Positions 1 through 14,457 of a stretch of DNA of 32,000 nt are shown in pieces. The stretch lies in contig NC_010814.1 of assembly GCF_000020385.1 (NCBI RefSeq), positions 510,001 through 542,000 of the forward strand, in the 5' to 3' direction. A program made the translations under genes and the position numbers. The notes below the pieces were generated by a model, which was not told the DNA's origin, did not search any database, and worked only from the letters and a program-made list of their open reading frames with translations. The DNA comes from Trichlorobacter lovleyi SZ (GTDB taxonomy: Bacteria > Desulfobacterota > Desulfuromonadia > Geobacterales > Pseudopelobacteraceae). Every line of letters starts with the position of its first letter. Within the stretch, counting starts at the first letter, position 1.

Positions 1-682
1 TGTCCAGCGTGCCGGTGATTTCTGGCCGACTGCCGCTGGCAAGTCCCATCAGCGTCCAGAGTCGCGCCTGATTTTGGAGCATCGTTTTCGCACTTTCGAT
101 CCTGGCCCCTTCACTCCGCGCCAGTTCAACCTTGACGAGATTCATCTCCAGTTCCGGGATGTCTCCGGCGGACAGGCGTTCTTTGGTTACGTCAAGGAGT
201 TGCCGGTTGAGCGCAATGGAACGGTCAGCCAGCGCAACGCGCTCTTTTGCCAGCAGGGCATCATAGAAGGCGGTCTTCACCTCTTCTCGTAACCGACGCT
301 CCTTATCCAGCAACTGCCAGCGGTAGAGATCCCGTTCCTGTTCGGCAACTGAAAGGCGTTTTCCGCGCTTGCCGACAAGCGGGATCTCTTGTGACAGGCC
401 AAGTGCCAGGCTGTTTTCATTTTTGCTGCCGGTCAGTGCGCCGGTGCCGGCTTCAAGGTCAAGGGTTGGATTCGGCAGCAGACCGGCTCTGGTCACACCG
501 GCGTCGCGGACACCCAGCTCCTCGCGCAACGCCCGCAGCTCGGCATTGTGCTGCATCGAAAGTGCAATGACATGGGACAACGAGAGTGTTGACTCTACCG
601 CCCAGGCCGTGCTGGACAGGGCCATGACGAAAATGACTGTCAACAGGGATAATGCTCCCTGTGCGCGTAGTGTTCTGCTCAA
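1..682 (-). CDS. Outer-membrane efflux protein, TolC/CzcC (OEP) family; 5' part only, gene runs off the window start
   Basis: Absent from the ORF track because it has no stop in the window. My minus-strand translation from TTG at 682-680 (AAAAGGAG 6 nt upstream) gives LSRTLRAQGALSLLTVIFVMALSSTAWA/VESTLSLSHVIALSMQHNAELRALREELGVRDAGVTRAGLLPNPTLDLEAG...ERLSAGDIPELEMNLVKVELARSEG. That is a signal peptide followed by the N-terminal repeat typical of CzcC-type outer membrane factors. The frame stays open to position 1. Confidence 0.75.
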   Translation of the reverse strand, partial: MSRTLRAQGALSLLTVIFVMALSSTAWAVESTLSLSHVIALSMQHNAELRALREELGVRDAGVTRAGLLPNPTLDLEAGTGALTGSKNENSLALGLSQEIPLVGKRGKRLSVAEQERDLYRWQLLDKERRLREEVKTAFYDALLAKERVALADRSIALNRQLLDVTKERLSAGDIPELEMNLVKVELARSEGARIESAKTMLQNQARLWTLMGLASGSRPEITGTLD

Positions 683-802
683 GAGATGTTCTCCTTTTAT
701 TCAGTTGTATGATCGGCTGAACAGCGGTTGTAGGCGTACTACGACGGGAAATGGACGCAGGTGTCCCTGTGGATCAGGGCGAACTGCTCCCTCCGTAGCG
801 TG

Positions 803-1174
803 CTAGGCTTGGTTTTGCGGAGGAATAAACTTGGAGAGGAAAACTTCAGGAAGAAACTGATAGGGCTCGGAAAAGATCAAGTCACGTACAACAGGGCTGT
901 AGTGTAATGCCAGCTGTTGCATGGGAAGAGGGGCGTGGCAGATGCAGTTGACACAGCTATCGCAGCCGTCAGAATCCTTGTGCTCGGACGACGGCGTGCT
1001 GCAGGGACAGTGATCGTTTGCACAGGGAGGATGGTGAATGTATGCCGAGGCGTTCGGTACGGCTGAACATCCCTGAAGGGCATGGGCACTTTCTGCCACG
1101 CCATGCAGGGTAATGGCCAGCATGACCAGAAGCATGAGCTGCGTTAAAAATTTTATGAAAGGTAGTTTGCGCAT
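803..1174 (-). CDS. Small secreted Cys/His-rich protein, paralog 1 of an unrecognised family (C-terminal FIPPQN motif)
   Basis: 123-aa ORF with signal peptide MRKLPFIKFLTQLMLLVMLAITLHGVAES. Cys/His-rich core (HHPPCANDHCPCS, DGCDSCVNCICHAPLP) and C-terminus LPEVFLSKFIPPQNQA. It shares this architecture and both motifs with the ORFs at 5503-5838 and 10565-10921. It sits directly upstream of the czcC-like gene on the same strand. Confidence 0.6.
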   Translation of the reverse strand: MRKLPFIKFLTQLMLLVMLAITLHGVAESAHALQGCSAVPNASAYIHHPPCANDHCPCSTPSSEHKDSDGCDSCVNCICHAPLPMQQLALHYSPVVRDLIFSEPYQFLPEVFLSKFIPPQNQA

Positions 1175-1362
1175 TTAGTCTTAAAAATATAAATTACTAC
1201 GCTATCTGTCAAGAATTATAAAATTAATGTTTAAAGCTGGATGATTACAGTAGATGGAAAGACAATTAAAAACGTTAAAATGGTCTTACCCTTTTGTTGG
1301 CAATTTTGAGGCAGCGCTTGACCGGCACTTTAATCGCCGCTTGCATCATGAGATAAACTTTC

Positions 1363-3711
1363 TCAGTTAAACCCGTTAGTTAGGTAGTATTCCTGGATTC
1401 TGGTGCTTTTCGGCAGTATTGCCTCGGGATCGGTAAACTTGATGATACTGCGTGGTGAGTCATACTGCTCGGTAAAGAGTTTTTTGAAACGTTGTGGCGC
1501 ATAGGTTGTCCGTGCGGTTCCGTATTCAAGCACTGGCCTGTCGTTGCTTAGAAGAGGGGCGTCTGTCGAGATATTTGCCAGAGTTTTCGGCCCCATCAGG
1601 AAGCTTGCAGCCAGCACTTCCGGCAGATTCAAAAAATGCTCCTCGGTGCCGGGGTAGCCGAAGAACAGTTCGGCACGTACCCTGCTGTTCTGCTTCAATA
1701 CCCTGACCCCTTCCGCCCGAATCGCTAAATCTCTGTCGGGGGAACCGATCAGCAACAGTTCGGCATGTTGATTGTACCAGAGGGTGCTGTGGGGGAACAC
1801 TGCCAGAAAGGTTCTGATCACCGACTTGAGCTGGTCTTGGTTGAAGAAGCCGACCGGCAGAAATTGGGCGATGATGCCGTCCTGAGCCAGTTTTTCCCTG
1901 GCGTTGCGATAAAATTCAAGGGTATAGAAGGCCGATGCCTGCGGCCTGAAGATCTGCCCCACCTCAACCGAGATCAGGTCATACCGCCGCTTGCCGTACC
2001 GTGCCACGGTGCGACCGTCTTCGGCAATGAATGAGACCCGTGGATCGTTGAGCCAGCTTCCCTGAAAATGCTTCTTGAGCACCTGCGGAAGGCTGCTTTC
2101 AATATCCACGCAATCCAGGCGGGTGATGTCGTAGTAGAGGAACCTGCTTGGCGCCTGTCCGGCGCCGATCCCAACCACCAGGATCTCCTGTGCAGCCGGG
2201 TGGAGCAGCATCGGAAGGTGGGCCGCCATGATCTGGTGCCCGGTGCCTTTCTTGCCCTGCCACAGACGATCCAACTCCATGGTCAGATCGCCGTTTTTTT
2301 GAACCACAGAGATAAAACTGTTCTTGCCCTCCACGTAATCGACCAGCTTTTTCCCCTTGGCCAGATAACTCTGCGGCAGATGTACGGTTGTTGTGCTGAT
2401 CAGGCACAGCCACGCCGCCAGGCTGACGCACGCAATCAGCCCCCTGACCCGCCAGGGTCTGCCCCGCTCAAAAAAGAGCATGACTAGAATTCCCAACAGC
2501 AGACACAGGCCGGTGGTAACCAGCAGGGTGGCGTGCATGCCCAGCAACGGCAGCAGGATAAAGCCGGTCAACAGCGAACCGGCAACACAGCCCGCTGTGT
2601 TGACAGCAAGCAGCCTCCCCACACGTTTGCCGCTGCTGTAACGTGCCTGCCTGATCAGATCAAACAGCAAAGGAAAGGTGAGACCGGAGCAGAGCGCCGG
2701 AATAAACATCAGCGCCAGACAGATCAGCAGTACCATCACCGGTGATTCGCTTGATCCGGCCCAGTCCCAGGCCGCTGTCGGCAGTAGTAGCGATAGCAGA
2801 ACAAACAGCGAGTTCAGGATGTAGGCCGCAGCCAATGCAGTCGGGTGGCGCAGGGCGGGCCGGTGCAGGCGGGCCAGTATGCTGCCTGCACTTATCCCCA
2901 GCAGGGTTACCAGCAGACTGATGGTATAGGTATAGACCGTGTTGTGGGTGATCAGCGACAGAAAGCGGGTCCAGATGATCTCGTAAGAAAGTGCACAGAA
3001 GCCGGTGCCGAAGATAACGGGATACAGCAGCGCCTGTCCGGTTGAATTAAAGCTCCGGTCAGGAAAGGCTGTAACTGCTGCAGGGATAGCTACGGAATGC
3101 GGATCATATTTCAGCAGGTACAGCAGAAGCAGCCCCGTCCCCTGGGCCATCAGGCCGATCAGCAGCAGCGTGCTGCTGATGCCGAGCATCGGCAGCAAGA
3201 TAAAGCCGCAGAGCAGGCAACCGGCTGCTGCACCGAGGCTGTTCAGGGCATAGAGAAATCCCAGCTCCTTGCCTGCTGTATCGTAAAACTGGGTAAAGAG
3301 CGGTAGTGTTCCCCCCATTAGAAAGGTCGGCGGAATGATGATCAGACCGATCAGCAGCAGACGAGTCAGTGCCAGGGTGCTATCGTTCTGAAAACCGGCT
3401 TGGTAGAGCAGCTGGTACGGCTGTTCAAGCAGGGTCAGCAGGGGCAAGCTGAGCATGGCTCCGGTGCCGATGCCGATCTCAAGCAGTGCGTAGACCCGTA
3501 ACGGTTGTTTCCACCGTTGCACACAGTTGCCGAAATAGTGCGCACCCAGCGCCATTCCGGCAAAGAACAGCGCAACCACGGAACTGACGGCAAAGGCTGT
3601 GGCTCCGAATATCCTGCCGGCTGCCCTGATCCAGCAGATTTCGTAGCAAAGTCCGGTGAACCCGGAGAGGAACAAGAGGCTCAGCAGGAGTAAGCGGAAC
3701 TGTCGTGTCAT
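1363..3711 (-). CDS. Fused polytopic membrane domain / spermidine-synthase-like (class I SAM-fold aminopropyltransferase-like) protein
   Basis: 786-aa ORF. The N-terminal roughly 450 aa are many hydrophobic helices. The C-terminal part has a Rossmann SAM-fold signature (ILVVGIGAGQAPS...DCVDIE...FIAEDGR...YDLISVEV), as in the spermidine synthase family. The ATG at 3711 (MTRQFRLLLL...) is preferred over the TTG at 3723. The gene follows the EamA stop (3720-3722) within 8 nt, or overlaps it by 4 nt if TTG is used. Confidence 0.75.
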   Translation of the reverse strand: MTRQFRLLLLSLLFLSGFTGLCYEICWIRAAGRIFGATAFAVSSVVALFFAGMALGAHYFGNCVQRWKQPLRVYALLEIGIGTGAMLSLPLLTLLEQPYQLLYQAGFQNDSTLALTRLLLIGLIIIPPTFLMGGTLPLFTQFYDTAGKELGFLYALNSLGAAAGCLLCGFILLPMLGISSTLLLIGLMAQGTGLLLLYLLKYDPHSVAIPAAVTAFPDRSFNSTGQALLYPVIFGTGFCALSYEIIWTRFLSLITHNTVYTYTISLLVTLLGISAGSILARLHRPALRHPTALAAAYILNSLFVLLSLLLPTAAWDWAGSSESPVMVLLICLALMFIPALCSGLTFPLLFDLIRQARYSSGKRVGRLLAVNTAGCVAGSLLTGFILLPLLGMHATLLVTTGLCLLLGILVMLFFERGRPWRVRGLIACVSLAAWLCLISTTTVHLPQSYLAKGKKLVDYVEGKNSFISVVQKNGDLTMELDRLWQGKKGTGHQIMAAHLPMLLHPAAQEILVVGIGAGQAPSRFLYYDITRLDCVDIESSLPQVLKKHFQGSWLNDPRVSFIAEDGRTVARYGKRRYDLISVEVGQIFRPQASAFYTLEFYRNAREKLAQDGIIAQFLPVGFFNQDQLKSVIRTFLAVFPHSTLWYNQHAELLLIGSPDRDLAIRAEGVRVLKQNSRVRAELFFGYPGTEEHFLNLPEVLAASFLMGPKTLANISTDAPLLSNDRPVLEYGTARTTYAPQRFKKLFTEQYDSPRSIIKFTDPEAILPKSTRIQEYYLTNGFN

Positions 3712-3719
3712 GCAATGGT

Positions 3720-4763
3720 TCAATGGCTGTGACGGTGATGAATATCCGGCCAGTGCACGTGGGTGTGGGTCAGCGGTTCGTGGCAGTGGTGATGCTCATG
3801 GGGCCCGCTGATATCCCGCTCATCATGGGCATGCCGGTGATGCTTGTCATGGGTGTGTTGGTGGTTGTGCTCCAGAGGATTATGGGTGTGGGGATGACGG
3901 TGCCTTTCACCGTAGAGGAACAGGATCCCTGAAAGCATGATCAGCGCTGCCAACCAGTATGCTTCAGGGGGACGCTCGCCCAGCAGGAGAACCGAAAGCA
4001 GGGTGCCGATGAACGGTCCGGTGGCAAACCAGGTGCTGGTGCGGGCCGCTCCGATCTCGCGCAGCGCATGAATGAACAGCACCAGGCTTACGCCGTAGCT
4101 GAGGGCCCCGATACCCAAAGCCGCTGTCACCTGCAGTGCAGAGCCTGACTCACTGGAGAGCAGACGGGCAAGCAGGATGTTGAACAGCCCGGCGCTCAGA
4201 CCTTTCAGGCAGGCAAGCAGTGTGGCTGGCAAGGACTCCAACTCGCGGGTCAGATTGTTGTCAATTCCCCACAGGCAGCAGGCTGCCAGCACCGCAAGGC
4301 CGGGGAGGGAAAGCGTTGTCCCGCCACTGCCGCTCAGTACAATCAGAACAGAGGCTCCGACGATCAGTAACTTGCCCGCCCAGACCCGCATGCCGACATA
4401 TTCATGGAACACCAGCCAGGCCAACAGCGTTGTTGCCACCGCCTCGAAATTAAGCAGCAACGACACCTCTGTTGCTGAACCGAAACGAATGCCGTACGCC
4501 AGAAAGAGAGGAGCCAGCACTCCCCCGGAGACAATAGCGCCGCCAAGGTGCAGCCACTGGCGGCCGGACAGGGAGTGTAGTGCCGTGAAGACAGGTGTTC
4601 TTTGCCGGAGCACTACGCCGGCCAGTCCCAGGCCTGAACCCAGATAAAGCAGACCGGCCAGCAGCGCGGGCGGCATTTCCCCCGTCATTGCCTTGCAGGC
4701 CACCGGTGATATGCCGAATAGAATTGCCGAGAGCAATGCGGTATGGATGCCCTGTTTACCCAT
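3720..4763 (-). CDS. EamA/DMT-family transporter with a C-terminal poly-histidine tail
   Basis: 347-aa ORF with about ten hydrophobic helices in two EamA-like halves (ILFGISPVACK..., GLLYLGSGLGL...). The last roughly 62 aa (coordinates about 3723-3908) are ERHRHPHTHNPLEHNHQHTHDKHHRHAHDERDISGPHEHHHCHEPLTHTHVHWPDIHHRHSH. Confidence 0.8.
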   Translation of the reverse strand: MGKQGIHTALLSAILFGISPVACKAMTGEMPPALLAGLLYLGSGLGLAGVVLRQRTPVFTALHSLSGRQWLHLGGAIVSGGVLAPLFLAYGIRFGSATEVSLLLNFEAVATTLLAWLVFHEYVGMRVWAGKLLIVGASVLIVLSGSGGTTLSLPGLAVLAACCLWGIDNNLTRELESLPATLLACLKGLSAGLFNILLARLLSSESGSALQVTAALGIGALSYGVSLVLFIHALREIGAARTSTWFATGPFIGTLLSVLLLGERPPEAYWLAALIMLSGILFLYGERHRHPHTHNPLEHNHQHTHDKHHRHAHDERDISGPHEHHHCHEPLTHTHVHWPDIHHRHSH

Positions 4764-5075
4764 GCATGAGTTTTATCACGGCAGTTTGCAAGATAATAGT
4801 TTTCCCTGCCCACGGAACTACTTTTGTCCCGGCGTCACCAATCTTGAGCTCTACCTTAAAGGGATAGCGTTAGTCGGCGTAAGTTTAAGTGACGATGGTG
4901 AATCACAAAACGATTGCCGGGTAGAATTAAACTGGGGCTGCTATTATTTTTGATCGCAGCGTGGGGGGGGACAGCACGGTTTCGGATGATATTTGGGTTA
5001 CTGCACTTGAGTGCATTCTGTAAAATCCTCCGGGAAAGGAAAACCCAAAGAACGTCCAATCATTGGCAGATCTTG

Positions 5076-5195
5076 TCAAGCCTGGAATACGCTGTTGCGG
5101 TCACACGGATGAGTGCCAATAGGGAAGCAGCGTTGCAGTTAATTAAATATCTCCAGACTGATGAAGCCCACAGGGCCTTGCAGGTTTGGGGTTGA
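5076..5195 (+). pseudogene. Possible 3' remnant of a periplasmic solute-binding protein gene (ModA/TupA/FbpA-like C-terminus)
   Basis: The end of ORF 4914-5195 reads LEYAVAVTRMSANREAALQLIKYLQTDEAHRALQVWG*. This resembles the C-terminal 'y-x-vav-k-s-n-xeaA-x-F-x-fL-s-xeaq-x-l-x-x-G' end of family-1 extracellular solute-binding proteins. The upstream part of the ORF looks non-homologous, and there is no signal peptide or full-length gene. Called by eye only. Confidence 0.3.
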
Positions 5196-5450
5196 GAATA
5201 GAGCCGTCTTCAATATAGGGCCTTGCTGACATTTACGTTTTTTTACCCAGACCTGTTTGTCAAGCTGTTTCCAATAGCTCATCGGTTTCCGGTTTGCGCA
5301 AAAGCAACGAGGCACCACTGCGATCGCCAGGGTCACCACAATCACTGCCGCCTCGGCAGATAAGGGCGGCTCCGCTCCCGGGGCAGGGACGGGGATGGCG
5401 CAGATGCATGCAAACAGGTAGAACGCCGGCGCGTATCTGGCAATGCGCAT
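5139..5450 (-). pseudogene. Chimeric/decayed ORF whose 3' part is a frameshifted copy of the terC C-terminal helix and tail
   Basis: 103-aa ORF with a good SD (GAGGAG 7 nt before the ATG at 5450). Residues AAVIVVTLAIAVV are encoded by DNA near-identical to the terC 3' end. A 1-nt deletion (GTGGTTGCC to GTGGTGCC) shifts the frame. In the ancestral frame the sequence would read ASLLLRKPETDELLETA*, the same 17 C-terminal residues as TerC (encoded with several synonymous differences). Confidence 0.45.
5253..5349. repeat. 97-bp copy of the terC 3' end (repeat copy A)
   Basis: ctgtttgtcaagctgtttcca..ctcatcggtttccggttt...ccactgcgatcgccagggtcaccacaatcactgcc aligns base for base with 10947-11044, with a handful of substitutions and one 1-nt indel. 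Confidence 0.85.
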
Positions 5451-5502
5451 GGACGTACTCCTCGTAATGTGATGAAGCTACGGCAAGGGTGTTGCTGCGG
5501 AG

Positions 5503-5838
5503 TCAGGCGTTGGATCGGGGCGGCTTGAACGGGATGCGGGAAAATTCCTTTGGCACCAGGTGGGGGACAACAGCGGTGAACTGTTTGGTCTGGGGTGGAA
5601 CCAGGACTGCAGGCAGCTGTGAGGTAACTGCCTGCAGCTGTGTATGGGTGTCGCAACAGTGGTCACCATCCGGGTTGTGTGTGTCATCATGACAAGGGCT
5701 CGTGCTTGAGGCGCATCCTGACGATATCAGGCAACCGCCGGTCTCATGGGCATCTGCCACCGCCTGGTCGTGTCCGGCGTGCAGGCTGCCGCCCAGCAGG
5801 CAGATGATCATGACTATGACACCACAATAACGAAGCAT
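5503..5838 (-). CDS. Small secreted Cys/His-rich protein, paralog 2 (C-terminal FKPPRSN motif)
   Basis: ATG at 5838 gives MLRYCGVIVMIICLLGGSLHA (signal peptide). The core is His/Cys/Asp-rich (GHDQAVADAHETGGC...SPCHDDTHNPDGDHCCDTHTQ) and the C-terminus is VPKEFSRIPFKPPRSNA. The ORF track start (TTG at 5880) has no SD. It is the last gene after the ABC ATPase. Confidence 0.55.
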   Translation of the reverse strand: MLRYCGVIVMIICLLGGSLHAGHDQAVADAHETGGCLISSGCASSTSPCHDDTHNPDGDHCCDTHTQLQAVTSQLPAVLVPPQTKQFTAVVPHLVPKEFSRIPFKPPRSNA

Positions 5839-5895
5839 GGCTGAGACCTTAGTGTTTGTTGATGTTGGACGTAGTGACAAAACAGGGCTGGCCGG

Positions 5896-6555
5896 TCAGA
5901 GCAGCAGCCCATCCTTCAGGCGGATCGTCCGCTGAGCGTAGTGGCCGTTATCCGGGTTGTGGGTGACCATCACGATGGTCTGGCCCGCCTGGTGCAGCTC
6001 TGTAAAAAGCCCCATGACCTGGTCGCTGGTGGCACTGTCCAAATTGCCGGTCGGCTCATCGGCAAACAGGATTGCCGGACGGTTGACCACGGCCCGCGCG
6101 ATTGCAACCCGTTCCTGTTCCCCACCGGACAGCCGGCCGGGCAGGCGCCCGGTGCAGCCGGCCAGCCCCATCCGTGCCAGAGCGTCATTTGCCAGACGCC
6201 GTTTTTCCGCAGCGGCCATGGCCAGCGGGGCCAGCGGCAGCATGACGTTTTCCTGTGCTGTCAGGTAGGGCACCAGATGAAAGGACTGGAAGATAAAACC
6301 GAAATGCCTTGCGCGAAAATCTGCCAGGCCGTTGTCATCAAGCCTGTAGATGGCCGTGCCGTCCACTTCGACGCTGCCGCTGCCGGGGTGGCACATCCCC
6401 CCCAGAATGGTCAGCAGGGTGCTCTTGCCGGAGCCGGACTGCCCCATGATACAGACAAACTCGCCGGTCTCCACTGTCAGATCGACCCCCCGGAGTGCTG
6501 CTACGGCGCCTTCGCCGGAGGGATACTCTTTGGTTATATGGTGTGCGGTTATCAT
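5896..6555 (-). CDS. ABC transporter ATP-binding protein (MacB/LolD/FtsE-like)
   Basis: Walker A GQSGSGKST, signature LSGGEQERVAIARA, Walker B ILFADEPT, H-loop VTHN. 219 aa, with GGGGAAG upstream of the ATG. Confidence 0.9.
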   Translation of the reverse strand: MITAHHITKEYPSGEGAVAALRGVDLTVETGEFVCIMGQSGSGKSTLLTILGGMCHPGSGSVEVDGTAIYRLDDNGLADFRARHFGFIFQSFHLVPYLTAQENVMLPLAPLAMAAAEKRRLANDALARMGLAGCTGRLPGRLSGGEQERVAIARAVVNRPAILFADEPTGNLDSATSDQVMGLFTELHQAGQTIVMVTHNPDNGHYAQRTIRLKDGLLL

Positions 6556-6645
6556 CGTACTTCCCCAATGCGCGACTGGGCGCCGTAAGTGAATGTAGAG
6601 CGGCAGAAGCGTGACTTCTGAACTGAAGCTGCCCAGCCGCGCCAG

Positions 6646-7806
6646 CTACAGACTACGAAGTGCATCGGCCGGATCCATCCTGCCAGCCCGGCGGGCCGGG
6701 TAGACAGCTGCCAGCAGGCTGACCAGCCCCACGGCAGCAATGGCGGCAAGGGCCACCTGCCACTGCAGCAGCAGGTGCGGGTGACCGGATTGCGCCAGCA
6801 GTGGCAGTGTCACGGCGGCGGCTCCGACCCCCAGCAGGTAGCCTGTCAGGCCTGCCACCAGCCCCACCAGCCCGGCCTCAAGCAGGATAATCCCCATCAC
6901 ATGACCGGTGCGGTAGCCGATGGCCCGGAAGATGCCGATTTCTACCTTACGCTCGTTGACATTGCCCATCATGGTGATGAAGACTACCAGAAGACCGATC
7001 AGGGCGATCACCCCACCCATCCCCAGCGAGAACCGCTTGAGCTGGCCGATGGTCTGCAGACGCCCCTCCACCACCTGTTTGATGGCGCTGACCCTGGCGT
7101 CCGGCAGCACCCCGGCAATCTGCTCCACCATCTCACCAATCGGACAGCCGGAGCAGAGTGCCGCCACTTCGATCAGCGTGATCTTGCCCTGTTTGCCGGT
7201 TATGGCCTGGGCTGCTGCCAACGGTACAAACAGCAGGCCATCATCCTGAGAGCCGGTCTCCTGCAAAAGTGCAGCTACCTTAAACGATCTGCCCCCTACT
7301 GTGAGCCGGTCACCCGGCTTTACCCCCAACACCCGTGCAGCGCTATTACCCAGCAGGGCATCATCAGCAGCCGACGGCTCTGCACCGGTTAACCGCCACC
7401 AGGGTTTCATCCGCAGTTCAGCCGCAAAATCCACCCCCACCAGTAGCAGCTCCCTGCCCTGCACAGTCACCGTTCCCAGCACCTTGGGGGCAACGGCGGC
7501 GATGTTCTGGTGGTTCTTGATGGTGCGGATCCGCTCCAGCACCGATGGGTCAAGCTCTCGCTGGTCAAAGGAGACACGTCCCAGGCTGATGCCGCCGTAG
7601 GAGAGGGCCAGATCATTACTCTTGGGGGTGATCAGGATATTGGCCCCGAACTGGTCCATGGTGTGTTCAATATCAGCAGTCATGGAGTTTGAGAGGGTGA
7701 CCAGCGCCACCACTGCAGCCAGCCCCACTGCCAGCGCCACGGTCAGGAAGAACATCCGGGCAGGCCGGCGGATCAGGTTTTTTAAGGCGATCTGATAGGG
7801 TCTCAT
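6646..7806 (-). CDS. ABC transporter permease, FtsX/MacB-type
   Basis: 386 aa. N-terminal MRPYQIALKNLIRRPARMFFLTVALAVGLAAV (typical FtsX-family start and TM1), a roughly 230-aa extracytoplasmic domain, then three C-terminal TM helices. Overlaps the upstream lipoprotein gene by 4 nt. Confidence 0.85.
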   Translation of the reverse strand: MRPYQIALKNLIRRPARMFFLTVALAVGLAAVVALVTLSNSMTADIEHTMDQFGANILITPKSNDLALSYGGISLGRVSFDQRELDPSVLERIRTIKNHQNIAAVAPKVLGTVTVQGRELLLVGVDFAAELRMKPWWRLTGAEPSAADDALLGNSAARVLGVKPGDRLTVGGRSFKVAALLQETGSQDDGLLFVPLAAAQAITGKQGKITLIEVAALCSGCPIGEMVEQIAGVLPDARVSAIKQVVEGRLQTIGQLKRFSLGMGGVIALIGLLVVFITMMGNVNERKVEIGIFRAIGYRTGHVMGIILLEAGLVGLVAGLTGYLLGVGAAAVTLPLLAQSGHPHLLLQWQVALAAIAAVGLVSLLAAVYPARRAGRMDPADALRSL

Positions 7807-8240
7807 GGGAAGAACCGTGCCCCCTGTTGCAGTTCAGCCACCGGCAGCAGCAGCTGATCACCTGTCACCTGTGACGGCAGGAAGTGGGGGTTGCAGCCTC
7901 CCACTGAAGATGGGCCGATCCGGTCAATCGGGAAGGTCAGATTGCAGTTGCGGCAGAGCATCAGATCCCCCTGCTGCTGATAGCCTTTGCGCTCCTTGTA
8001 GCAGACATCGCAGGCATCCAGCGCGGTCCTGATCCGGCCATCACTCCCTTTGACCGCAAAGAAGCGGATCTCTTTGCCGTCCAGATTAATCCGGTAAAAG
8101 GAGGCTTGCATCGGTTGCAGGTCTGTCAGCGGGATCTTTACTACGCTGCCGTCTGCCTGCACAGACTTGTGCGAACCGCTGCTGCAGGCTGCCAGCATGC
8201 CGACCAGGGCCAGGATAGTCAGAATTAACAGTTTTTTCAT
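7803..8240 (-). CDS. Cys-rich lipoprotein, DUF2318-like (CxxC...CxxC...GGCNP)
   Basis: Lipobox MKKLLILTILALVGMLAAC. Also FYRINLDGKEIRFFAVKGSDGRIRTALDACDVCYKERKGYQQQGDLMLCRNCNLTFPIDRIGPSSVGGCNPHFLP. This CxxC/CxxC/GGCNP pattern is what I remember for DUF2318 ('Fe-S-containing protein') domains that co-occur with FtsX-type ABC systems. Family assignment is from memory, not from a search. Confidence 0.6.
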   Translation of the reverse strand: MKKLLILTILALVGMLAACSSGSHKSVQADGSVVKIPLTDLQPMQASFYRINLDGKEIRFFAVKGSDGRIRTALDACDVCYKERKGYQQQGDLMLCRNCNLTFPIDRIGPSSVGGCNPHFLPSQVTGDQLLLPVAELQQGARFFP

Positions 8241-8242
8241 GG

Positions 8243-9091
8243 TTACATTCCTCCGTAGCTGTGTAGACCGGACAGCAGCAGGTTGACACCCAGGTAGCAG
8301 AAAATGGTGGCTGCAAAGCCGATGATCGAGAGCCAGGCTGCCCGTTTGCCGACCCAGCCCTTGGTGAAGCGGGCATGCAGGAAGGCGGCATAGACAAACC
8401 AGACAATCAGCGACCAGGTCTCTTTGGGGTCCCAGCTCCAGTAGGTGCCCCAGGCATAGTTGGCCCAGGCCGCACCGGTGATGATCCCCAGGGTCAAAAG
8501 CGGAAAGCCGACCATGATCGCCTTGTAGTTCAGGTCGTCCAGCACCCGGGTGGGGGGAAAGACCGACAGGATTCCATCGGCAGGTTCGGTACTGCTTGCT
8601 TCGCTTTTGGCCTTGATCAGGTACATGATCGAGACGCCGCAGGCCACGGCAAAGGCGGCATAGCCCAGAAAGCAGCTGATGACATGGTAGGTCAGCCAGT
8701 TGCTCTGCAGGGCCGGCATCAAGGGACTGATGTCGCTGGGCAGGTAGAGCTGGCCCCAGGTCATGCCCAGCAGGGCAAACGGCATCACAAAGGCGCCGAT
8801 CACCCGGTAGTGGTATTTTGCATCAATGATCCCGAAGATCAGCACGATGCTCCAGGCAAAAAATACCACTGATTCGTACAGGTTGGACATCGGCGCATGG
8901 CCGACTCCCATGTCGTAGGACTCTTTCCAGCGCAGCCCCAGTGCGACGGTCTGGAGGGCAAAACCGGTCCAGGCCAGAACGGAACCTGCCAGGCCGATCT
9001 GCTTGTTGCGCCCGGCCAGGTAGATGAAGAAGGCCAGGGTGGAGAGCATGTAGAAGATGGTGGTACCGTTCATCAATGATCCGCTGTTCAT
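8243..9091 (-). CDS. ccsA: Cytochrome c biogenesis protein CcsA/ResC (system II heme handling)
   Basis: 282 aa, polytopic, with the tryptophan-rich WWD motif WANYAWGTYWSWDPKETWS and conserved His residues. Overlaps ccsB by 4 nt. Confidence 0.9.
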   Translation of the reverse strand: MNSGSLMNGTTIFYMLSTLAFFIYLAGRNKQIGLAGSVLAWTGFALQTVALGLRWKESYDMGVGHAPMSNLYESVVFFAWSIVLIFGIIDAKYHYRVIGAFVMPFALLGMTWGQLYLPSDISPLMPALQSNWLTYHVISCFLGYAAFAVACGVSIMYLIKAKSEASSTEPADGILSVFPPTRVLDDLNYKAIMVGFPLLTLGIITGAAWANYAWGTYWSWDPKETWSLIVWFVYAAFLHARFTKGWVGKRAAWLSIIGFAATIFCYLGVNLLLSGLHSYGGM

Positions 9092-10473
9092 CGTGTCTCC
9101 TCCTGCTGCAGTGTTGCCTTCAGTTGTTGTTCGATCCGCTCAATGCGCTGACGGAAGGCTGCCTGGGACTTGGTGGTATGACCGGCAATCACCAGTCTGC
9201 CCTGGCCAAATCTGAACCAGATCCGCTGGTGCGGCAGGAAAAAGGCTACATACAGCCCGACGCACATCAGCAGGCTGCCGATCCAGACCACCCAGACACC
9301 GGGGTCCTTGTTGACCTGCAGGCCGGTATACGGGCGTTCGGTGCCACCCTGGTAGGTGATGACCGGCAGGTTGTGTTTGGCTGCCTCACGTCTGTTCTCT
9401 TCAGGGTAGTTGGCAAGGCTCAACAAGGTCACTGCTGCGCCGCCATTGGCGGGATGCACGTCAATCCTGGCCGCCGGTCCGGTCTTGCCCGGCAGGAATG
9501 GCGAGACATCCTGTACCGCCTCAATCAGGTGCATGCTGCTGCCGTCCGGCAGATGGGCGGTTTCTTCACTGCCGACCGTCAGGCGTGTGGTACCGACGGT
9601 AAAGGTGTGGTTACCAGTGGTGCCGTAACTGGACTGATAAAAGGTGATCCCCTTGTAGGTCAACGGATCGTTGACGATCAGGCGGGCATGTTTGTAGCCG
9701 GGAATCTCCTTGCCATTCTCGGTAAGAGTCAGGATGCTCTTGAACTCTTTGGGCATCTGACTGGGGCCGCCACCGGGGGCATCATAGAAACTGACCGTAA
9801 ACTGGTCGCAGCGCAGCTCAAAACCGAGCGGCCGCTGCTGCCCTTTGCGGTCGGTGAAGCTGGAGACGGTACTGCCTTCCGGTATGGCCACAAAGCCCTT
9901 GAAACCGAAGATATTACCGATAATGGCGCCAATGAAGATCAGGATCACGCTGGCATGTACGCCATAGACCGCCAGTCTGGCCCAGGGGCGCTGCTGCACA
10001 AACAGGTGCAGTTCATGATCCTTTTCGGTCAGTACCGGTTTGCCTGCAACGGCAGCGATCGCTGCGGTCAGTCTGGCACGGTCAACAGATTCCGGGACGG
10101 TTAAAACAGCGCTGCAGGTGGCGGCTGCTTCCTGGGCGCTGCTGAGGGTGATGTCCGGTCTGGTGGCGATCCGCCAGACATGGGGCAGTCGTTTGATGGT
10201 GCAGGCCAGCAGGTTGATCGACAGCAGGGCCAAAAGCCCCTGAAACCACCAGGCGTGGTACATGTCAAAGAAGCCGAGCAAGGCATAGAGGCGGAAACGG
10301 TTGCCCTGTTCACCGCCGATGGATGCGACATATTCAGGGGGCAGTTGCCCCTGGGGAATAACGGTCCCGATGATGGAAACCAGGGCCAGCAGAATCAGTA
10401 CAGCCATGGTCAGGCGCAGCGAGGCAAGGGTCTGCATGACCTTGTCGCTGACCGAACGGTGTTCAGTCGTCAT
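9088..10473 (-). CDS. ccsB: Cytochrome c biogenesis protein CcsB/ResB (system II)
   Basis: 461 aa. The N-terminus ...TLASLRLTMAVLILLALVSIIGTVIPQG is the typical ResB start. A large periplasmic domain and C-terminal TM follow. AGGAG lies upstream of the ATG. Confidence 0.9.
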   Translation of the reverse strand: MTTEHRSVSDKVMQTLASLRLTMAVLILLALVSIIGTVIPQGQLPPEYVASIGGEQGNRFRLYALLGFFDMYHAWWFQGLLALLSINLLACTIKRLPHVWRIATRPDITLSSAQEAAATCSAVLTVPESVDRARLTAAIAAVAGKPVLTEKDHELHLFVQQRPWARLAVYGVHASVILIFIGAIIGNIFGFKGFVAIPEGSTVSSFTDRKGQQRPLGFELRCDQFTVSFYDAPGGGPSQMPKEFKSILTLTENGKEIPGYKHARLIVNDPLTYKGITFYQSSYGTTGNHTFTVGTTRLTVGSEETAHLPDGSSMHLIEAVQDVSPFLPGKTGPAARIDVHPANGGAAVTLLSLANYPEENRREAAKHNLPVITYQGGTERPYTGLQVNKDPGVWVVWIGSLLMCVGLYVAFFLPHQRIWFRFGQGRLVIAGHTTKSQAAFRQRIERIEQQLKATLQQEETR

Positions 10474-10564
10474 AGGTGGATCTCCTGAAACAGATAATCA
10501 GTCTTTGCAGCCAGGTGGCGCAAAGGAACAGGCAGAAAATGCCGCTAGGATGCTGTGATTACAG

Positions 10565-10921
10565 TCAGGAGAGGTTTTGCGGAGGTACAAAGATGGAGAG
10601 ATAGACTTGCGGTGGTGTTTGAGGCGTAGAGAGATTAAAACTGCTGGCAATGGCAACCGGTAAAGGAACGGTGACTGGAGCAAGGGTCAGTGGTGCATGG
10701 CAGGCACAGGCGCAGGCGGTTGTTGCACAGCCGTCATCCTGGTGTGTGTCTGCAGGGGTTTCTCCATGGCAGCCATCGCAATCAGCACTGGAGGCGGCTG
10801 TGCTGCGTGTATCGGGCAGATCCTGATGACTCAGTGCAGCCACCGGAGCCATCAGGATCGTTGCCAGTGCCAGTATGCTCAACAGGGTTGTGCTGATTAT
10901 GCGGATACGTGTTTGTAGCAT
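10565..10921 (-). CDS. Small secreted Cys/His-rich protein, paralog 3 (C-terminal FVPPQN motif; contains one CxxCH)
   Basis: ATG at 10921 gives MLQTRIRIISTTLLSILALATILMAPVAALS (signal peptide). The core is SADCDGCHGETPADTHQDDGCATTACACACHAPLT and the C-terminus is PPQVYLSIFVPPQNLS. An alternative TTG start at 10957 overlaps the terC stop (TTGA). The start is therefore uncertain. Confidence 0.6.
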   Translation of the reverse strand: MLQTRIRIISTTLLSILALATILMAPVAALSHQDLPDTRSTAASSADCDGCHGETPADTHQDDGCATTACACACHAPLTLAPVTVPLPVAIASSFNLSTPQTPPQVYLSIFVPPQNLS

Positions 10922-10946
10922 ACCGTTACAGTAGGGAATTGGCGTA

Positions 10947-11044
10947 CTGTTTGTCAAGCTGTTTCCAGCAACTCATCGGTTTCCGGTTTCCGTAAAAGTA
11001 GTGAGGCAACCACTGCGATCGCCAGGGTCACCACAATCACTGCC
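10947..11044. repeat. terC 3' end, repeat copy B (the intact source copy)
   Basis: Near-identical to 5253-5349. It covers the last TM helix, the C-terminal tail, the stop codon and 7 nt beyond the terC stop. Confidence 0.85.
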
Positions 11045-11892
11045 AGTGACAGACTGATCGGAATATGGAACCCCAGCATCATCAGGATCATCTTGACCCC
11101 CACAAAGGCCAGGATCAGGGCGATGCCGAACTTCAGGTAGGCAAACATCCCCATCAGGTTCGAGAGCAGAAAGAAGAGCGATCTGAGTCCCATGATGGCA
11201 AAGACGTTGGAGGTCAGTACGATAAACGGGTCCAGGGTAATGGCAAAGATGGCCGGAATCGAGTCCATGGCAAAGACCAGGTCGCTGCTCTCCACCACCA
11301 GCAGTACCATGAAGAGTGGACTGGCAATCCAGAGCTGCATGCGACGGGTAATAAACCAGTCGCCACGGATCCGCTTGGTCATCGGCAGGAAGCGGCGGGC
11401 CAGCTTGACCAGCGGGTTCTTGTCCGGCTCAATCTCGTCATCGCCGCTGAAGGCCATCTTCCAGGCGGTGTAGACCAGTAGTGCGCCAAAGATATAGAAA
11501 AGCCATTGGAACTCTTTCAGCAGTGCTGCGCCGATGAAGATGAAGACCAGCCGCATTACGATGGCACCCAGAATACCCCATTTCAAAACCTTGGCCTGCA
11601 GTTCACCCCGTACCCCGAAGACCGTGAAGATCATGATGAAGACAAACAGGTTGTCCACTGAGAGCGACTGTTCAATCAGGTAGCCGGTCAGAAACTCCAG
11701 TGCCTTCTGCTGGCCCATGGTGTACCAGATTCCGCCACCGAACAGCAGAGCCAGAAGCATCCAGACCACGGTCCAGGTGGCTGCTTTTTTGAAGCTGACC
11801 CGGCCGCTCTTGCGGTTCAGGCTCAGGTCTATGACCAGCATAAAGCTGATCAGGGCTGCAAAGACGATCCACATGATGGTGGTAGGTGACAT
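10954..11892 (-). CDS. terC: TerC-family integral membrane protein (Alx/YkoY-like, Mn-associated)
   Basis: 312 aa. Contains LTGYLIEQSLSVDNLFVFIMIF and a second half-repeat ESSDLVFAMDSIPAIFAIT, both typical of the TerC family. Confidence 0.9.
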   Translation of the reverse strand: MSPTTIMWIVFAALISFMLVIDLSLNRKSGRVSFKKAATWTVVWMLLALLFGGGIWYTMGQQKALEFLTGYLIEQSLSVDNLFVFIMIFTVFGVRGELQAKVLKWGILGAIVMRLVFIFIGAALLKEFQWLFYIFGALLVYTAWKMAFSGDDEIEPDKNPLVKLARRFLPMTKRIRGDWFITRRMQLWIASPLFMVLLVVESSDLVFAMDSIPAIFAITLDPFIVLTSNVFAIMGLRSLFFLLSNLMGMFAYLKFGIALILAFVGVKMILMMLGFHIPISLSLAVIVVTLAIAVVASLLLRKPETDELLETA

Positions 11893-11915
11893 GGTAGTTC
11901 CTTTACAACAACTGT

Positions 11916-12503
11916 TTAGAGTGAGAACAGGCGCCAGCCCATGGCAACGCCAAACACCAGAAACATGAAGCCGGCAGTGCGGTGAATCCAGCAGACCGGG
12001 ATATACTTGACCAGTTGTTTGCCGGCAAAGATGCCGATCAACGAAACCAGCCAGAGCGCCAGGGTTGAGGCAACAAAAACGGTGACGATGCCGGACAGGC
12101 TGCCGGAGTGTTGGGCTGCCTGACTGGCGGTCACCAGCTGGGTCTTGTCACCCAGCTCTGCCATGAAGATCATCAGAAAGGCGGTCCGCACCGCATCAGC
12201 TGCAGTGGGGGGCGGAGTATCGTCATCTCCGGCATCACAGGCATTTTTCAGGGTACTGTAGCCAAAGTACAGAAACAACAGGGCTGAAACCAGGGTGACC
12301 CAGAAGATCGGCAGTACCAGAAACAGGATCTTCCCCACCAGTACCGCTGCTAGGTTCAGCACGGTAAAGGCTGCGGCAATGCCGATGAAGATCCGTTTCC
12401 AGGGGTAGCGCAGTGCCAGGGCCATGGCAGTGAGCTGGGTCTTGTCACCCAGCTCCGCCAGAAAGATCAGACCAAAGCTGCTGATAAAAGTGGACAGTTC
12501 CAC
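11916..12503 (-). CDS. GDT1/UPF0016 (TMEM165/MneA-like) cation (Mn2+/Ca2+) transporter
   Basis: 195 aa with the duplicated signature E-x-G-D-K-T (FLAELGDKTQLTAMAL and FMAELGDKTQLVTASQ) in two 3-TM halves. The GTG start directly abuts the lemA stop. Confidence 0.85.
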   Translation of the reverse strand: MELSTFISSFGLIFLAELGDKTQLTAMALALRYPWKRIFIGIAAAFTVLNLAAVLVGKILFLVLPIFWVTLVSALLFLYFGYSTLKNACDAGDDDTPPPTAADAVRTAFLMIFMAELGDKTQLVTASQAAQHSGSLSGIVTVFVASTLALWLVSLIGIFAGKQLVKYIPVCWIHRTAGFMFLVFGVAMGWRLFSL

Positions 12504-13088
12504 CTAGAACTTCACTTTCGGTGCAACCTTGGCCCCTTCTTCGGCCTTGAACGGCTCCTTGCGCTGCAGGTGCAGCAGCATGGAGTTGGTCAGTGAGTTG
12601 GGGAAGGTGCGGATGCTGGTGTTAAAGGCCTGTACCTGCTTGTTGTAGCGCTCACGGGCCACGTTGATCCGGTTTTCAGTCCCTTCCAGCTGTTTCTGCA
12701 GATCAAGGAAGTTCTGGTTGGCCTTCAGGTCAGGATACTTCTCTGCCACCACCATCAGGCGGGACAGGGCGCCGGACATCTGGCCCTGCATCTGCTGGAA
12801 CTTGGCAATGGCAGCCGGGTCATTGATGATCTCCTTGCCCACCTTCATACCACCCACACTTGCGCGGGCCTCGGTGACCGCCTTCAAGGTATCGGCTTCA
12901 TGCTTGGCGTACCCTTTAACCACCTCAACCAGATTGGGGATCAGGTCGTTACGGCGTTGATAGGCGGATTCCACATCGCCCCAGGCAGCTATTACCGCTT
13001 CTTCATTGGCCTGCATGGTGTTGTAGCCACAACCGGACAGCATGCCCATCAGCAGGGTGCCCATAATCAACAGCATGATTCGTTTCAT
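12504..13088 (-). CDS. lemA: LemA-family protein (lipoprotein form)
   Basis: 194 aa. Has a lipobox (LSGC) and then YNTMQANEEAVIAAWGDVESAYQRRNDLIPNLVEVVKGYAKHE...NRINVARERYNKQVQAFNTSIRTFP, the canonical LemA pattern. Confidence 0.9.
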   Translation of the reverse strand: MKRIMLLIMGTLLMGMLSGCGYNTMQANEEAVIAAWGDVESAYQRRNDLIPNLVEVVKGYAKHEADTLKAVTEARASVGGMKVGKEIINDPAAIAKFQQMQGQMSGALSRLMVVAEKYPDLKANQNFLDLQKQLEGTENRINVARERYNKQVQAFNTSIRTFPNSLTNSMLLHLQRKEPFKAEEGAKVAPKVKF

Positions 13089-13321
13089 TGTGATTCCTCC
13101 GCTTTCTCAGGTTTCTTAACTTTTTTTTCAATGTAGGTCTTGACCTTGTGCAACAAATCCCTGGCCCAGACGAATTCAGTGGCCAGTATGCCCAGGCCCA
13201 GCGGTATCACCACGATTGCCGGGCCAGGGGTAAAGATCATGATGATGCCGATGATCACCACCGTGATGCCAATTACCGCCACCACCAGCTGGCGGGCCTT
13301 GCGCAGGGTCCAGTGCAGCAT
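13085..13321 (-). CDS. Small two-TM membrane protein, PGPGW-like
   Basis: 78 aa. VVAVIGITVVIIGIIMIFTPGPAIVVIPLGLGILATEFVWARDLL matches my memory of the PGPGW transmembrane family. The start overlaps the htpX stop (TAATG) and the stop overlaps the lemA start (ATGA). Confidence 0.55.
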   Translation of the reverse strand: MLHWTLRKARQLVVAVIGITVVIIGIIMIFTPGPAIVVIPLGLGILATEFVWARDLLHKVKTYIEKKVKKPEKAEESQ

Positions 13322-14178
13322 TAACGCTGGGCCATGGCCTGTAGACGGGCGATCCGCTCTTCCATGGGCGGATGGGTGGAGAACAGGCTCATCATGCCGC
13401 CGCCGGTAAGCGGATTGACGATGAACATGTGGGCCGTGGCCGGTGTGGCATCATGCATCGGAATCTGGTGTGACGCATTCTGCAGCCGTCCCAGGGCACT
13501 GGCCAGGGCGCGGGGCTTGCCGCAGATCTCGGCGCCGGTTGCGTCGGCCAGATATTCCCGCGAGCGGGAGACCGCCATCTGGATCAGCATCGCCATAAAG
13601 GGGGCCAGAATGGCCATGGCCAGTGAACCGACCAGGCCGCCAAGGCCGCCCCCTTCTTCGTCATCCCGTCCGGCACCCAGCATGGCGCCCCATTGCAGCA
13701 TGCTGCCGATCATGGAAATGGCACCGGCAAAGGTGGCGGCAATGGTGGAGATCAGGATGTCGCGGTTCTTGACATGCCCCAGCTCATGGGCCATCACCCC
13801 TTCCAGCTCCTCAGGGGAGAGAATCCGCAGGATGCCTTCCGTGGCTGCTACGGCAGCATGGCTGGGGTTGCGGCCGGTGGCAAAGGCGTTGGGTGATTGA
13901 TCCGGAATGATATAGACCTTGGGCATCGGCAGACCAGCCCGCTGTGCCAGCCGTTCTACCATGCCATAAAAAGCCGGGTTCTCACTGCGGGTGATCTCCT
14001 GAGCGCCGTACATCCGCAGTACGATCTTGTCCGAGAACCAATAGCTGCCGAAGTTCATGACTGCCGCCATGACAAAGGCGATCAACATGCCGCCTGACCC
14101 GCCGATTGCGCCCCCCATGGCCACCAACAGCACGGTTAACAGTGACAGTAACAAGGTTGTTTTAAACTGGTTCAACAT
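13321..14178 (-). CDS. htpX: Zinc metalloprotease HtpX (M48 family)
   Basis: HEXXH motif [12 protein letters not shown], four TM segments, and C-terminus [14 protein letters not shown]. The ATG at 14178 has GGAGGA 6 nt upstream. The longer track ORF (to 14256) would run into the riboswitch terminator, so it is rejected. Confidence 0.9.
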
Positions 14179-14222
14179 TTTGGGTTCCTCCGTTATGGTG
14201 CTTTGATAAAGCCGGGGAGGCC

Positions 14223-14279
14223 AAATAAAAAAGACCTTTACCCACGGCAAATACAACGAAAAGCCTGGGTAAAGGTCTT
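14223..14279 (-). terminator. Intrinsic terminator acting as the riboswitch expression platform
   Basis: Minus strand reads AAGACCUUUACCCA-(21-nt loop)-UGGGUAAAGGUCUU followed by UUUUAUUUGG. This is a perfect 14-bp stem. Its 5' arm overlaps the 3' strand of aptamer helix P1. Confidence 0.8.
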
Positions 14280-14380
14280 GCTGGCGATCTCTCGTCCCAC
14301 GTCCGAGCCCGTTTTACAGGACTGTCTTGACGAATCGTGGGCCGACCATGTCTCCGGTCGGTAGCTACTCCCCTTTACGT
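14269..14380 (-). promoter_or_regulatory. yybP-ykoY (Mn2+) riboswitch aptamer
   Basis: Minus strand reads ACGUAAAGGGGAGUAGCUACCGACCGGAGACAUGGUCGG...UUCGUCAAGACAG...GAGAGAUCGCCAGCAAGACCUUUAC. It carries the hallmark 5' AAAGGGGAGUAGC and 3' AGCAAGACCUUU blocks closed by P1 (GUAAAGG/CCUUUAC). These are nearly identical to the blocks I remember from the crystallised Lactococcus lactis Mn riboswitch. Downstream genes include TerC and UPF0016, the classic regulon. Confidence 0.85.
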
Positions 14381-14386
14381 AGTGAA

Positions 14387-14415
14387 ATCATAATCAGCCT
14401 TGCTATGCTTGTCAA
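14387..14415 (-). promoter_or_regulatory. Sigma70-type promoter for the riboswitch leader
   Basis: Minus strand has TTGACA (14415-14410), a 17-nt spacer and TATGAT (14392-14387). The predicted TSS is about 14380, right at the start of the aptamer. Confidence 0.6.
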
Positions 14416-14457
14416 GGGGATTCAATAGATGTTGTTGTTACGTTATTTCAACAGGTT

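Follow-up and report, generated by a model that had tools for sequence, protein, structure and literature searches.

The 32,000-nucleotide (nt) stretch of the Trichlorobacter lovleyi SZ genome analyzed here (contig NC_010814.1, positions 510,001 to 542,000; hereafter, the window) carries three small minus-strand open reading frames (ORFs), named P1, P2 and P3, whose products are rich in Cys and His and have a proline motif next to their C-terminus. By analogy with characterised systems, we consider these ORFs to be probably cis-acting, exported leader peptides that sense metals, forming a Geobacterales-specific branch of the DUF2946-like class that includes CutF, CruR, CopL and SilD. Our observations comprise homology, conservation of motifs and of their spacing, selection at the peptide level, gene order and predicted RNA structures; export, metal binding, pausing at F-I-P-P-Q-N-x-A-stop and regulation are proposed because the better known systems behave in this way. 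The kind of system is known. What is new is a large unannotated clade with its own arrest-like motif and its own Cys motif, the presence of three copies within 10 kb, of which one has been orphaned through a rearrangement, and a leader preceding resB-ccsA, with final codons predicted to pair with the resB ribosome-binding site.

P1 (803-1174) encodes 123 amino acids (aa) from its ATG start codon and shows 100% identity to a protein of T. lovleyi annotated as "hypothetical protein". It has a hydrophobic, signal-like N-terminal helix, placed by AlphaFold2 prediction at residues 4-35, followed by a Cys/His core and the conserved C-terminal motif. The Cys/His block, DGCDSCVNCICHAPLP (923-970), is a putative metal-binding site whose C-H lies 37 residues before the Pro-Pro pair (PP), and the C-terminal motif, LPEVFLSKFIPPQNQA (806-853, with the stop codon at 803-805), is a putative segment of ribosome pausing or arrest. 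P3 (10565-10921) encodes 118 aa from ATG, or 130 aa from an alternative TTG start at 10957, and has its Cys/His block at 10685-10735 and its tail, PPQVYLSIFVPPQNLS, at 10568-10615. The divergent ORF P2 (5503-5838) encodes 111 aa from ATG, or 125 aa from an alternative TTG start at 5880, with the block DGDHCCDTHTQL at 5635-5670 and the tail VPKEFSRIPFKPPRSNA at 5506-5556. A first-pass annotation, made from the letters of the window, had already reported these three ORFs; they are present at the coordinates that it gave, and the two Cys/His blocks that it quoted (DGCDSCVNCICHAPLP and DGCATTACACACHAPLT), as well as its three tails, are exact to the letter. PP is placed 4 residues before the stop in all three. 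Each ORF contains 6-8 Cys and 4-8 His residues, with CxxC, CxC and C-H elements, and CXXC is found in P1 (CDSC) and P3 (CDGC). All three have basic n-regions and, as judged by eye, A-H-A, L-S-H or L-H-A sites after the hydrophobic stretch. A lipoprotein identity was rejected, given that they have no lipobox. No fourth ORF with such a tail was detected in a six-frame scan of the window.

The three ORFs have orthologs in related genomes, which are grouped in 16, 11 and 3 public clusters, none of which is named or has a Pfam domain. When compared as profiles, the P1 and P3 ortholog groups align over their C-terminal 58 columns with an hhalign probability of 97.4% (E 1e-11), whereas the corresponding probabilities for P2 are 26% against P3 and 6% against P1. 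A family hidden Markov model (HMM) built from database representatives only, without any protein of the window, gave scores of 134.6 bits for P1, 84.0 bits for P3 and 20.5 bits for P2; shuffled versions of P2 (n=2000) peaked at 11.5 bits, although this control is lenient because shuffling also destroys the signal peptide. From these comparisons, P1 and P3 appear as clear paralogs and P2 as a distant relative of them only. The earlier proposal of three paralogs that end in a common motif is thus correct for P1 and P3, but the P2 profile is far weaker, and all that its tail has in common with theirs is F-x-P-P-x-x-x-A-stop.

The P1 and P3 groups were used for an exhaustive HMM search, which retrieved at least 261 representative clusters with a threshold of E<=1e-3 and 119 with one of E<=1e-10, nearly all from Geobacterales/Desulfuromonadales; the matched clusters are mostly 110-125 aa long, and the alignments run to the C-terminus. 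Their tail is nearly uniform, with the consensus ...(L/F)-P-(E/Q)-V-Y-L-(S/P)-(K/I)-F-(I/V)-P-P-Q-N-x-(A/S)-stop, and about 150 of the family's representatives have the P1-type tail. In 106 of 124 members, exactly 4 residues separate PP from the stop. At the DNA level, inspection of 71 distinct tails showed that positions 1-2 of the codons for P-E-V-Y-L-S-K-F-I-P-P-Q are essentially invariant, and that the third positions are free (0.9-1.6 bits), every synonymous codon being used. This pattern indicates that the tail is selected as a peptide and is conserved at the amino-acid level only. The second conserved element is C-x-C-x-C-H-A-P-L, and in 109 of 117 members the C-H of its C-x-C-H motif precedes PP by 36-38 residues (exactly 37 in 88 of them), even though the residues in between are poorly conserved across the family. 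Members contain a median of 8 Cys and 6 His. Past the N-terminal helix no fold was predicted by AlphaFold2 using a 101-sequence alignment, the rest being coil (pTM 0.29), and a sequence search of the PDB found no relative among solved structures at E<=1. The possibility that P1, P2 and P3 are chance ORFs was rejected because they are conserved in relatives and show selection at the peptide level. Thus, a real, unannotated family of Cys/His-rich proteins tied to metal and envelope genes exists, as the first-pass annotation had suggested, and its members are probably exported, by analogy with the systems discussed below.

To determine which genes accompany the family we scanned 80 loci, one genome per species, nearly all from Geobacteraceae and other Desulfuromonadales with a few Desulfobulbales-like metagenome-assembled genomes; this set over-represents P1-type leaders because P1 served as the confirmation query. 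In 65 of the 80 loci an ORF of 300 aa or more follows downstream on the same strand, and it matches the Pfam family OEP (outer membrane efflux protein) in 59 of these 65 and ResB in the other 6. The gap between the leader stop and the OEP gene is about 120 nt in related loci, and the OEP gene is followed, with a 4-nt overlap, by a gene for a CzcB/NccB-type periplasmic adaptor in 32 of 32 cases. Judged by this gene content, the loci are czcCBA-like heavy-metal operons of the resistance-nodulation-division (RND) type. Two of the scanned loci contain two family members near each other: at L037 they are found at 1481-1840 and 3986-4366, and at L038 they are divergent (3315-3707, minus strand, and 3989-4366, plus strand), each facing a larger downstream ORF. 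Local multiplicity therefore seems to be common in the family.

P1 follows this arrangement. Its proposed target, located 120 nt past its stop codon, is a czcC-like OEP gene with a TTG start (Pfam OEP, E 8.6e-25), the 5' part of which (1-682, minus strand) lies within the window before the gene runs off its edge; the statement of the first-pass annotation that P1 directly precedes a czcC-like outer membrane factor is therefore correct. The AT-rich gap of 189 nt upstream of P1 carries a sigma-70-like promoter match (TTGACA-17-TATTTT, 10/12; 1184-1212, minus strand), which is a pattern match from a consensus scan only.

P3 is located 91 nt upstream of resB, the first gene of its proposed target operon (5896-10473, minus strand; Pfam assignments), which consists of resB (9088-10473), ccsA (8243-9091) and the genes encoding an FtrD-like lipoprotein (7803-8240), a MacB/FtsX permease (6646-7806) and an ABC ATPase (5896-6555). 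Orthologs of P3 keep the downstream resB-ccsA block, while their upstream neighbours vary (DUF3142, cytochromes, divergent genes), and P3 therefore heads resB-ccsA rather than being the end of the terC operon. In close strains without resB-ccsA (L082/L083, 3027-3940), the P3-type leader is found directly before the FtrD-like/MacB/ABC genes. An upstream TerC gene is not conserved among P3 orthologs, so that the link of P3 with a terC operon, made in the first-pass annotation, was not sustained. Nor was the manganese riboswitch that had been assigned to that operon: at gathering scores the whole window is without any Rfam match, and the region 10400-15800 yielded none of relevance at E<=1, so that neither a yybP-ykoY (Mn) riboswitch nor another RNA family was detected near the LemA-GDT1-TerC genes.

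In the case of P2, its ortholog P0030 is located 50 nt upstream of an intact OEP gene. In the window, 52 nt after the P2 stop, there is instead a 103-aa chimeric ORF (5139-5450, minus strand), in which the start of an OEP gene is fused to a copy of the 3' end of terC. This remnant keeps a Shine-Dalgarno (SD) sequence and an ATG, and shares 50% identity over 36 aa with the N-terminus of the OEP at locus L081 (BLASTP, E 8e-8). A direct repeat of about 97 nt, about 90% identical, connects 5253-5349 with 10947-11044, the 3' end of terC. Since the OEP remnant runs into the terC copy, the target of P2 is truncated, and the same truncated OEP/terC arrangement is found after P2 in related strains. The chimera looks like a recombination scar that cut the efflux operon of P2. 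The ORF behind the intact OEP gene that follows the P2 ortholog at L081 (6017-6760) encodes a lipoprotein-like product with a His-rich stretch, weak YtkA/FixH-like matches and an N-terminus unlike that of a typical RND adaptor. Altogether, the three ORFs are best read as first genes and not as last genes. The description of P2 and P3 as the last genes of their operons is right as to their physical position, but not as to the linkage conserved in the 65 loci, where OEP or resB lies downstream.

The RNA context of the leaders provides a further line of evidence. In the minimum free energy (MFE) structure of the P3-resB junction, the last two codons and the stop of P3, CUCUCCUGA (10565-10573, minus strand), form the 5' arm of a long-range stem, the 3' arm of which is the SD region of resB, UCAGGAGAU (10480-10488, minus strand). 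The z-score of this fold is -4.2, and none of 200 shuffled sequences folds as well; the duplex between the P3 tail and the resB SD has an energy of -13.2 kcal/mol, as compared with a shuffle mean of -5.4. When a ribosome footprint was imposed on the end of P3 in a thermodynamic model, the probability that the SD is unpaired changed from 0.0 to about 0.5. The P3-type stem is retained at L085, whose leader is 55% identical at the protein level, by means of a U-A to G-C exchange; at L082, which has a different next gene, the end of the leader is predicted to pair with the SD and start region of that gene. Among nine P3-type loci, the duplex between the tail and the translation-initiation region (TIR) was better than in shuffled sequences with p<0.005 in three and with p of about 0.02-0.06 in another three, and was not significant in the remaining three.

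The P1-type loci show a different conserved structure, namely an RNA hairpin of about 60 nt that begins 4 nt past the P1 stop (738-799, minus strand; MFE) and, according to MFE folds, 2-10 nt after the stop in most of 53 related intergenic regions. RNAalifold predicted zero pairs on the MAFFT alignment of the intergenic regions, and the covariation figures, obtained on alignment A8, thus refer to a structure derived by hand: 72.8% of the cells are paired, against 38-56% when the partners are slid, compensatory changes are present in 20 of 22 pairs, and none of 500 shuffles reaches the observed values. The hairpin is followed by a spacer of about 39 nt that contains more C than G in 52 of the 53 OEP-type loci. 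Next comes the TIR of the OEP gene (677-700, minus strand), with the SD AAGGAG and the TTG start at 682-680, for which a small local hairpin is predicted. This start region, AAAGGAGGTTATTCCTTTGGGAACA, is near-invariant in related loci (alignment A8, columns ~160-187), and the near-invariant start sequence AAAGGAGGTTATTCCTTTGG would fold into the small hairpin, which comprises the SD and the start codon. Nearly all OEP genes behind P1-type leaders have a TTG start.

CutF and CruR are, to our knowledge, the only leaders for which experiments have so far demonstrated that metal is sensed through the nascent chain. CutF of R. capsulatus, a small protein exported by Sec, has a CxxxC site as well as a C-terminal proline motif, and its nascent chain senses periplasmic copper and stalls the ribosome (PMC9973294; bioRxiv 10.1101/2025.02.05.636593). 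To count as CutF-like, a protein must be of <150 aa, carry a signal peptide, have PP among its last 15 residues and be encoded no more than 1 kb upstream of a gene on the same strand; the set includes CopL, SilD and CusD, with CzcI being related but without the prolines, and its commonest downstream neighbour is the OEP of an RND pump (PMC9973294). P1, P2 and P3 have the length, the PP near the end, the Cys/His motif and the same-strand downstream gene, at 120 nt (P1-OEP), 52 nt (P2-OEP remnant) and 91 nt (P3-resB). Like CutF, they are thus proteins of <150 aa with a Cys/His site and, within 15 residues of the end, a proline motif, encoded upstream of a metal-homeostasis gene and presumably exported, and P3 has in addition a predicted RNA stem that would shield the ribosome-binding site belonging to the next gene. 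They differ in that CutF has CxxxC and PPP, instead of C-x-C-x-C-H-A-P-L and F-[IV]-P-P-Q-N-x-A-stop, that the CutF target is a multicopper oxidase and not an OEP or ResB, and that the SD of P1-type loci lies outside the stem next to the stop. Furthermore, this clade is largely confined to Geobacterales/Desulfuromonadales, unlike the wider CutF-like set. The likeness to CutF is one of architecture and position.

CruR (Bp2923) of Bordetella pertussis is the founding DUF2946 upstream ORF, in which copper relieves an arrest at the C-terminal RAPP and triggers Rho termination (PMC9426467), and the conserved CXXC-RAPP spacing of DUF2946 matters for its regulation (Roy et al. 2022, PMC9426467). The family described here resembles it in being encoded by upstream ORFs, in having a Cys motif at a fixed distance from a near-stop Pro-Pro, and in the poor structure predicted for the product. 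The intergenic region is 162 nt for CruR and about 120 nt here, both with a stretch that contains more C than G. On the other hand, CruR has RAPP 3 residues from the end and a spacing of 45 residues, against F-I-P-P 4 residues from the end and a spacing of 37; for DUF2946 as a whole, the RAPP motif is replaced here by F-[IVK]-P-P, and the spacing of 36-38 residues, compared with 45 +/- 2, agrees in principle in being fixed. The copper response of CruR ends the transcription of an uptake system, and efflux operons would need the opposite logic. As to the features of arrest leaders in general, peptide-level conservation near the stop is evident from the 71 distinct tails, and an mRNA structure that occludes the SD and is opened by a ribosome was seen in silico for P3 and its close orthologs, though in neither P1-type leaders nor P2.

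In Cupriavidus metallidurans, SilD and CusD, which are small exported Cys/His proteins with a Pro-rich end, head silDCBA and cusDCBAF, which is the position that P1 has; SilD (pMOL30) is located 72 nt upstream of the TolC-family gene of a heavy-metal RND pump. It ends in ...PRPPPRPLAILHCCFRI, with its prolines 12 residues from the end. Like the present family, SilD has no Pfam or NCBIfam match, and failing those models therefore leaves membership of the wider class possible. CopL of Xanthomonas/Stenotrophomonas, a Cys/His-rich ORF on which the induction of the downstream copA by copper depends in cis, provides the best recurrent library match, although its downstream genes differ from those of this family. 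The gene for CzcI of C. metallidurans, a small periplasmic protein, lies immediately upstream of czcC, comparable to the place of P1, but the protein is without the C-terminal proline motif, which is the most conserved feature of this family. ResB and cytochrome c biogenesis are not mentioned as a target in the main text of PMC9973294 or PMC9426467, and we found no relevant literature that links DUF2946 to Geobacter.

Based on these likenesses, the following mechanism may be envisaged. The leader would be translated with its N-terminal export signal until the ribosome reaches F-[IV/K]-P-P, at which point the C-x-C-H and the Cys/His residues upstream of it would be just out of the ribosome or in the translocon; from general knowledge of the tunnel length, the spacing of 37 residues would put C-x-C-H near the ribosomal exit or the translocon at the time that PP is decoded. 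Binding of metal to the Cys/His residues, or their thiol state, would then alter the dwell time of the ribosome on P-E-V-Y-L-S-K-F-I-P-P-Q-N-x-A-stop, and the occupancy of the 3' end of the leader by the ribosome would set the expression of the next gene. In the case of P3 this route could be direct, since its last codons and stop are predicted to be paired with the resB ribosome-binding site, which a paused ribosome would free. For P1-type leaders the link may involve the conserved hairpin right after the stop and the short spacer with more C than G, through either translation initiation or Rho-type attenuation. P2 would be a divergent copy, whose efflux operon is truncated in this genome.

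Several observations weigh against this proposal. The simple CutF model, in which a paused ribosome frees the SD, failed in silico for P1-type loci: in thermodynamic modelling, a ribosome placed at the end of the leader did not set the SD free, and the coupling could therefore be by Rho-type attenuation, as in CruR, by re-initiation or by other means. Neither P1-type nor P2-type loci show complementarity between the tail and the TIR when compared with shuffles, and fold and duplex tests detected no significant structure in the short intergenic region of P2, the target gene of which is moreover truncated. P3 starts only 33 nt past terC, and might be co-transcribed with it in this genome. The proline motif is PP, and not PPP as in CutF or RAPP as in CruR, and the CutF motif does not cause stalling when taken out of its context (PMC9973294). 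The relationship with known families is distant. Scans of P1, P2 and P3 against Pfam and NCBIfam gave nothing above threshold, and the only library models that the family matches recurrently are CopL_fam and DUF2946. CopL_fam (NF033807) matches 18 of 101 members, with a best E of 3.2e-7, and DUF2946 (PF11162) matches 15 of 101 at E<=1 (best E 2.4e-4), no match to either model reaching its curated cut-off; the resemblance to DUF2946 that the first-pass annotation had mentioned thus holds as a lead. P3 itself scores 22.1 bits (E 1.8e-4) with CopL_fam, the cut-off of which is 40 bits; P1 and P2 have no CopL_fam match, and none of the three ORFs matches DUF2946 even at E<=10. The alignment of the family with SilD is weak as well (hhalign 34%, E 4e-4, N-terminal half). 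Finally, a fixed C-terminus would equally suit a docking peptide.

This last point leads to the explanation offered by the first-pass annotation, according to which the products are stable, secreted periplasmic metal-binding proteins or metallochaperone accessories, with a conserved tail that could serve in docking or recognition; its partner would be the neighbouring transporter (OEP/RND, MacB, TerC or CcsBA). An export-type N-terminus together with many Cys and His residues, the consistent linkage to metal-efflux genes and a selection that acts on the peptide and not on the RNA all agree with it, and an exact C-terminal end is typical of peptides that are recognised by their free C-terminus. 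However, no folded domain is predicted after residue 35, no PDB relative was found, and there is no Pfam/NCBIfam match of P1, P2 or P3 to a periplasmic metallochaperone domain of the CusF or CopC type. The same tail is present before unrelated targets (OEP, ResB and FtrD-like), and therefore no single docking partner is evident. Docking would also leave unexplained why the distance between the Cys motif and PP is fixed over a variable linker, and it does not account for the family gene always being first and being followed by a conserved, structured intergenic region, or for the predicted pairing of the P3 tail codons with the SD of the next gene. Besides, those relatives that have been characterised work in cis, and degradation follows their export (PMC9973294; PMC9426467). 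We therefore regard a metallochaperone accessory as unlikely, though worth keeping in mind; the absence of a fold, the fixed distances from the Cys motif to PP and from PP to the stop, and the RNA pairing of P3 are better explained by a leader that acts in cis.

Two other explanations seem to us less probable still. The products could act in trans as periplasmic regulators of the CzcI type, the metal-bound protein modulating a membrane sensor or pump without any ribosome pausing. CzcI of C. metallidurans, the gene for which precedes czcCBA and which is considered a metal-sensing regulator, belongs to the CutF-like similarity network (PMC9973294), and P1 holds the same position relative to its czcC-like gene; yet CzcI has no counterpart to the PP that is almost invariant here and stands at a constant distance from the stop, no sensor kinase is conserved beside the leaders in the sampled loci, and the P3 stem argues for a link in cis, all of which makes this explanation distinctly improbable. 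Alternatively, the leaders could be SecM-like monitors of periplasmic thiol chemistry or cytochrome c maturation, and not of metal, the C-x-C-H / C-x-x-x-C-H block mimicking a haem-attachment site so that its handling by disulfide chemistry or CcsBA sets the pull on the paused chain. The position of P3-type leaders at the head of resB-ccsA would fit, as would the C-H that ends the most conserved Cys element and the disulfide-dependent pulling force that is part of the current CutF model (bioRxiv 10.1101/2025.02.05.636593). Nevertheless, most members head heavy-metal efflux operons (59 versus 6), and the motif is not a canonical CXXCH, and we give this explanation very little credence.

Some other genes of the window deserve mention. 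Between P2 and P1 lies a gene for an EamA-family transporter (3720-4763, minus strand) whose C-terminal tail is long and rich in His (HRHPHTHNPLEHNHQHTHDKHHRHAHDE, HEHHHCHEPLTHTHVH) and which has a weak match to ZIP transporters; it may be a metal transporter that was inserted there. Between this gene and P1, the ORF 1363-3723 (minus strand) encodes a polytopic membrane protein of 786 aa, with a C-terminal spermidine/spermine-synthase domain and a weak MFS-like match in its N-terminal part. In the region 17041-30754 (plus strand), five hybrid histidine kinases are encoded in a row, interspersed with a periplasmic binding protein; the kinases have HisKA, HATPase and receiver domains, and PAS is present in several of them.

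A bolder extension of the cis-acting leader proposal is that P3-type leaders are the first nascent-chain sensors that control cytochrome c biogenesis, that is, the System II resB-ccsA genes plus the FtrD-like/MacB module and, more broadly, that P-E-V-Y-L-S-K-F-I-P-P-Q-N-x-A-stop is a new ligand-tuned arrest sequence for most czcCBA-type pumps of Geobacterales. At present we consider this doubtful, a long shot. It could take two forms: in one, periplasmic metal stress would be linked to extra capacity for haem ligation; in the other, the leader would be a SecM-like substrate, with the C-x-C-H block reporting on the thiol or haem-attachment machinery.

If the leader proposal is true, heavy-metal RND pumps of Geobacterales would be controlled by exported leaders that sense metal during their own synthesis, and the same control would extend, in some lineages, to an operon for cytochrome c biogenesis. 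This would tie metal stress to cytochrome maturation in bacteria whose respiration depends on multihaem cytochromes. It would also correct the operon boundaries in this region of the T. lovleyi genome, explain hundreds of "hypothetical protein" annotations, and provide ribosome studies with a distinct and very strongly conserved arrest-like sequence.

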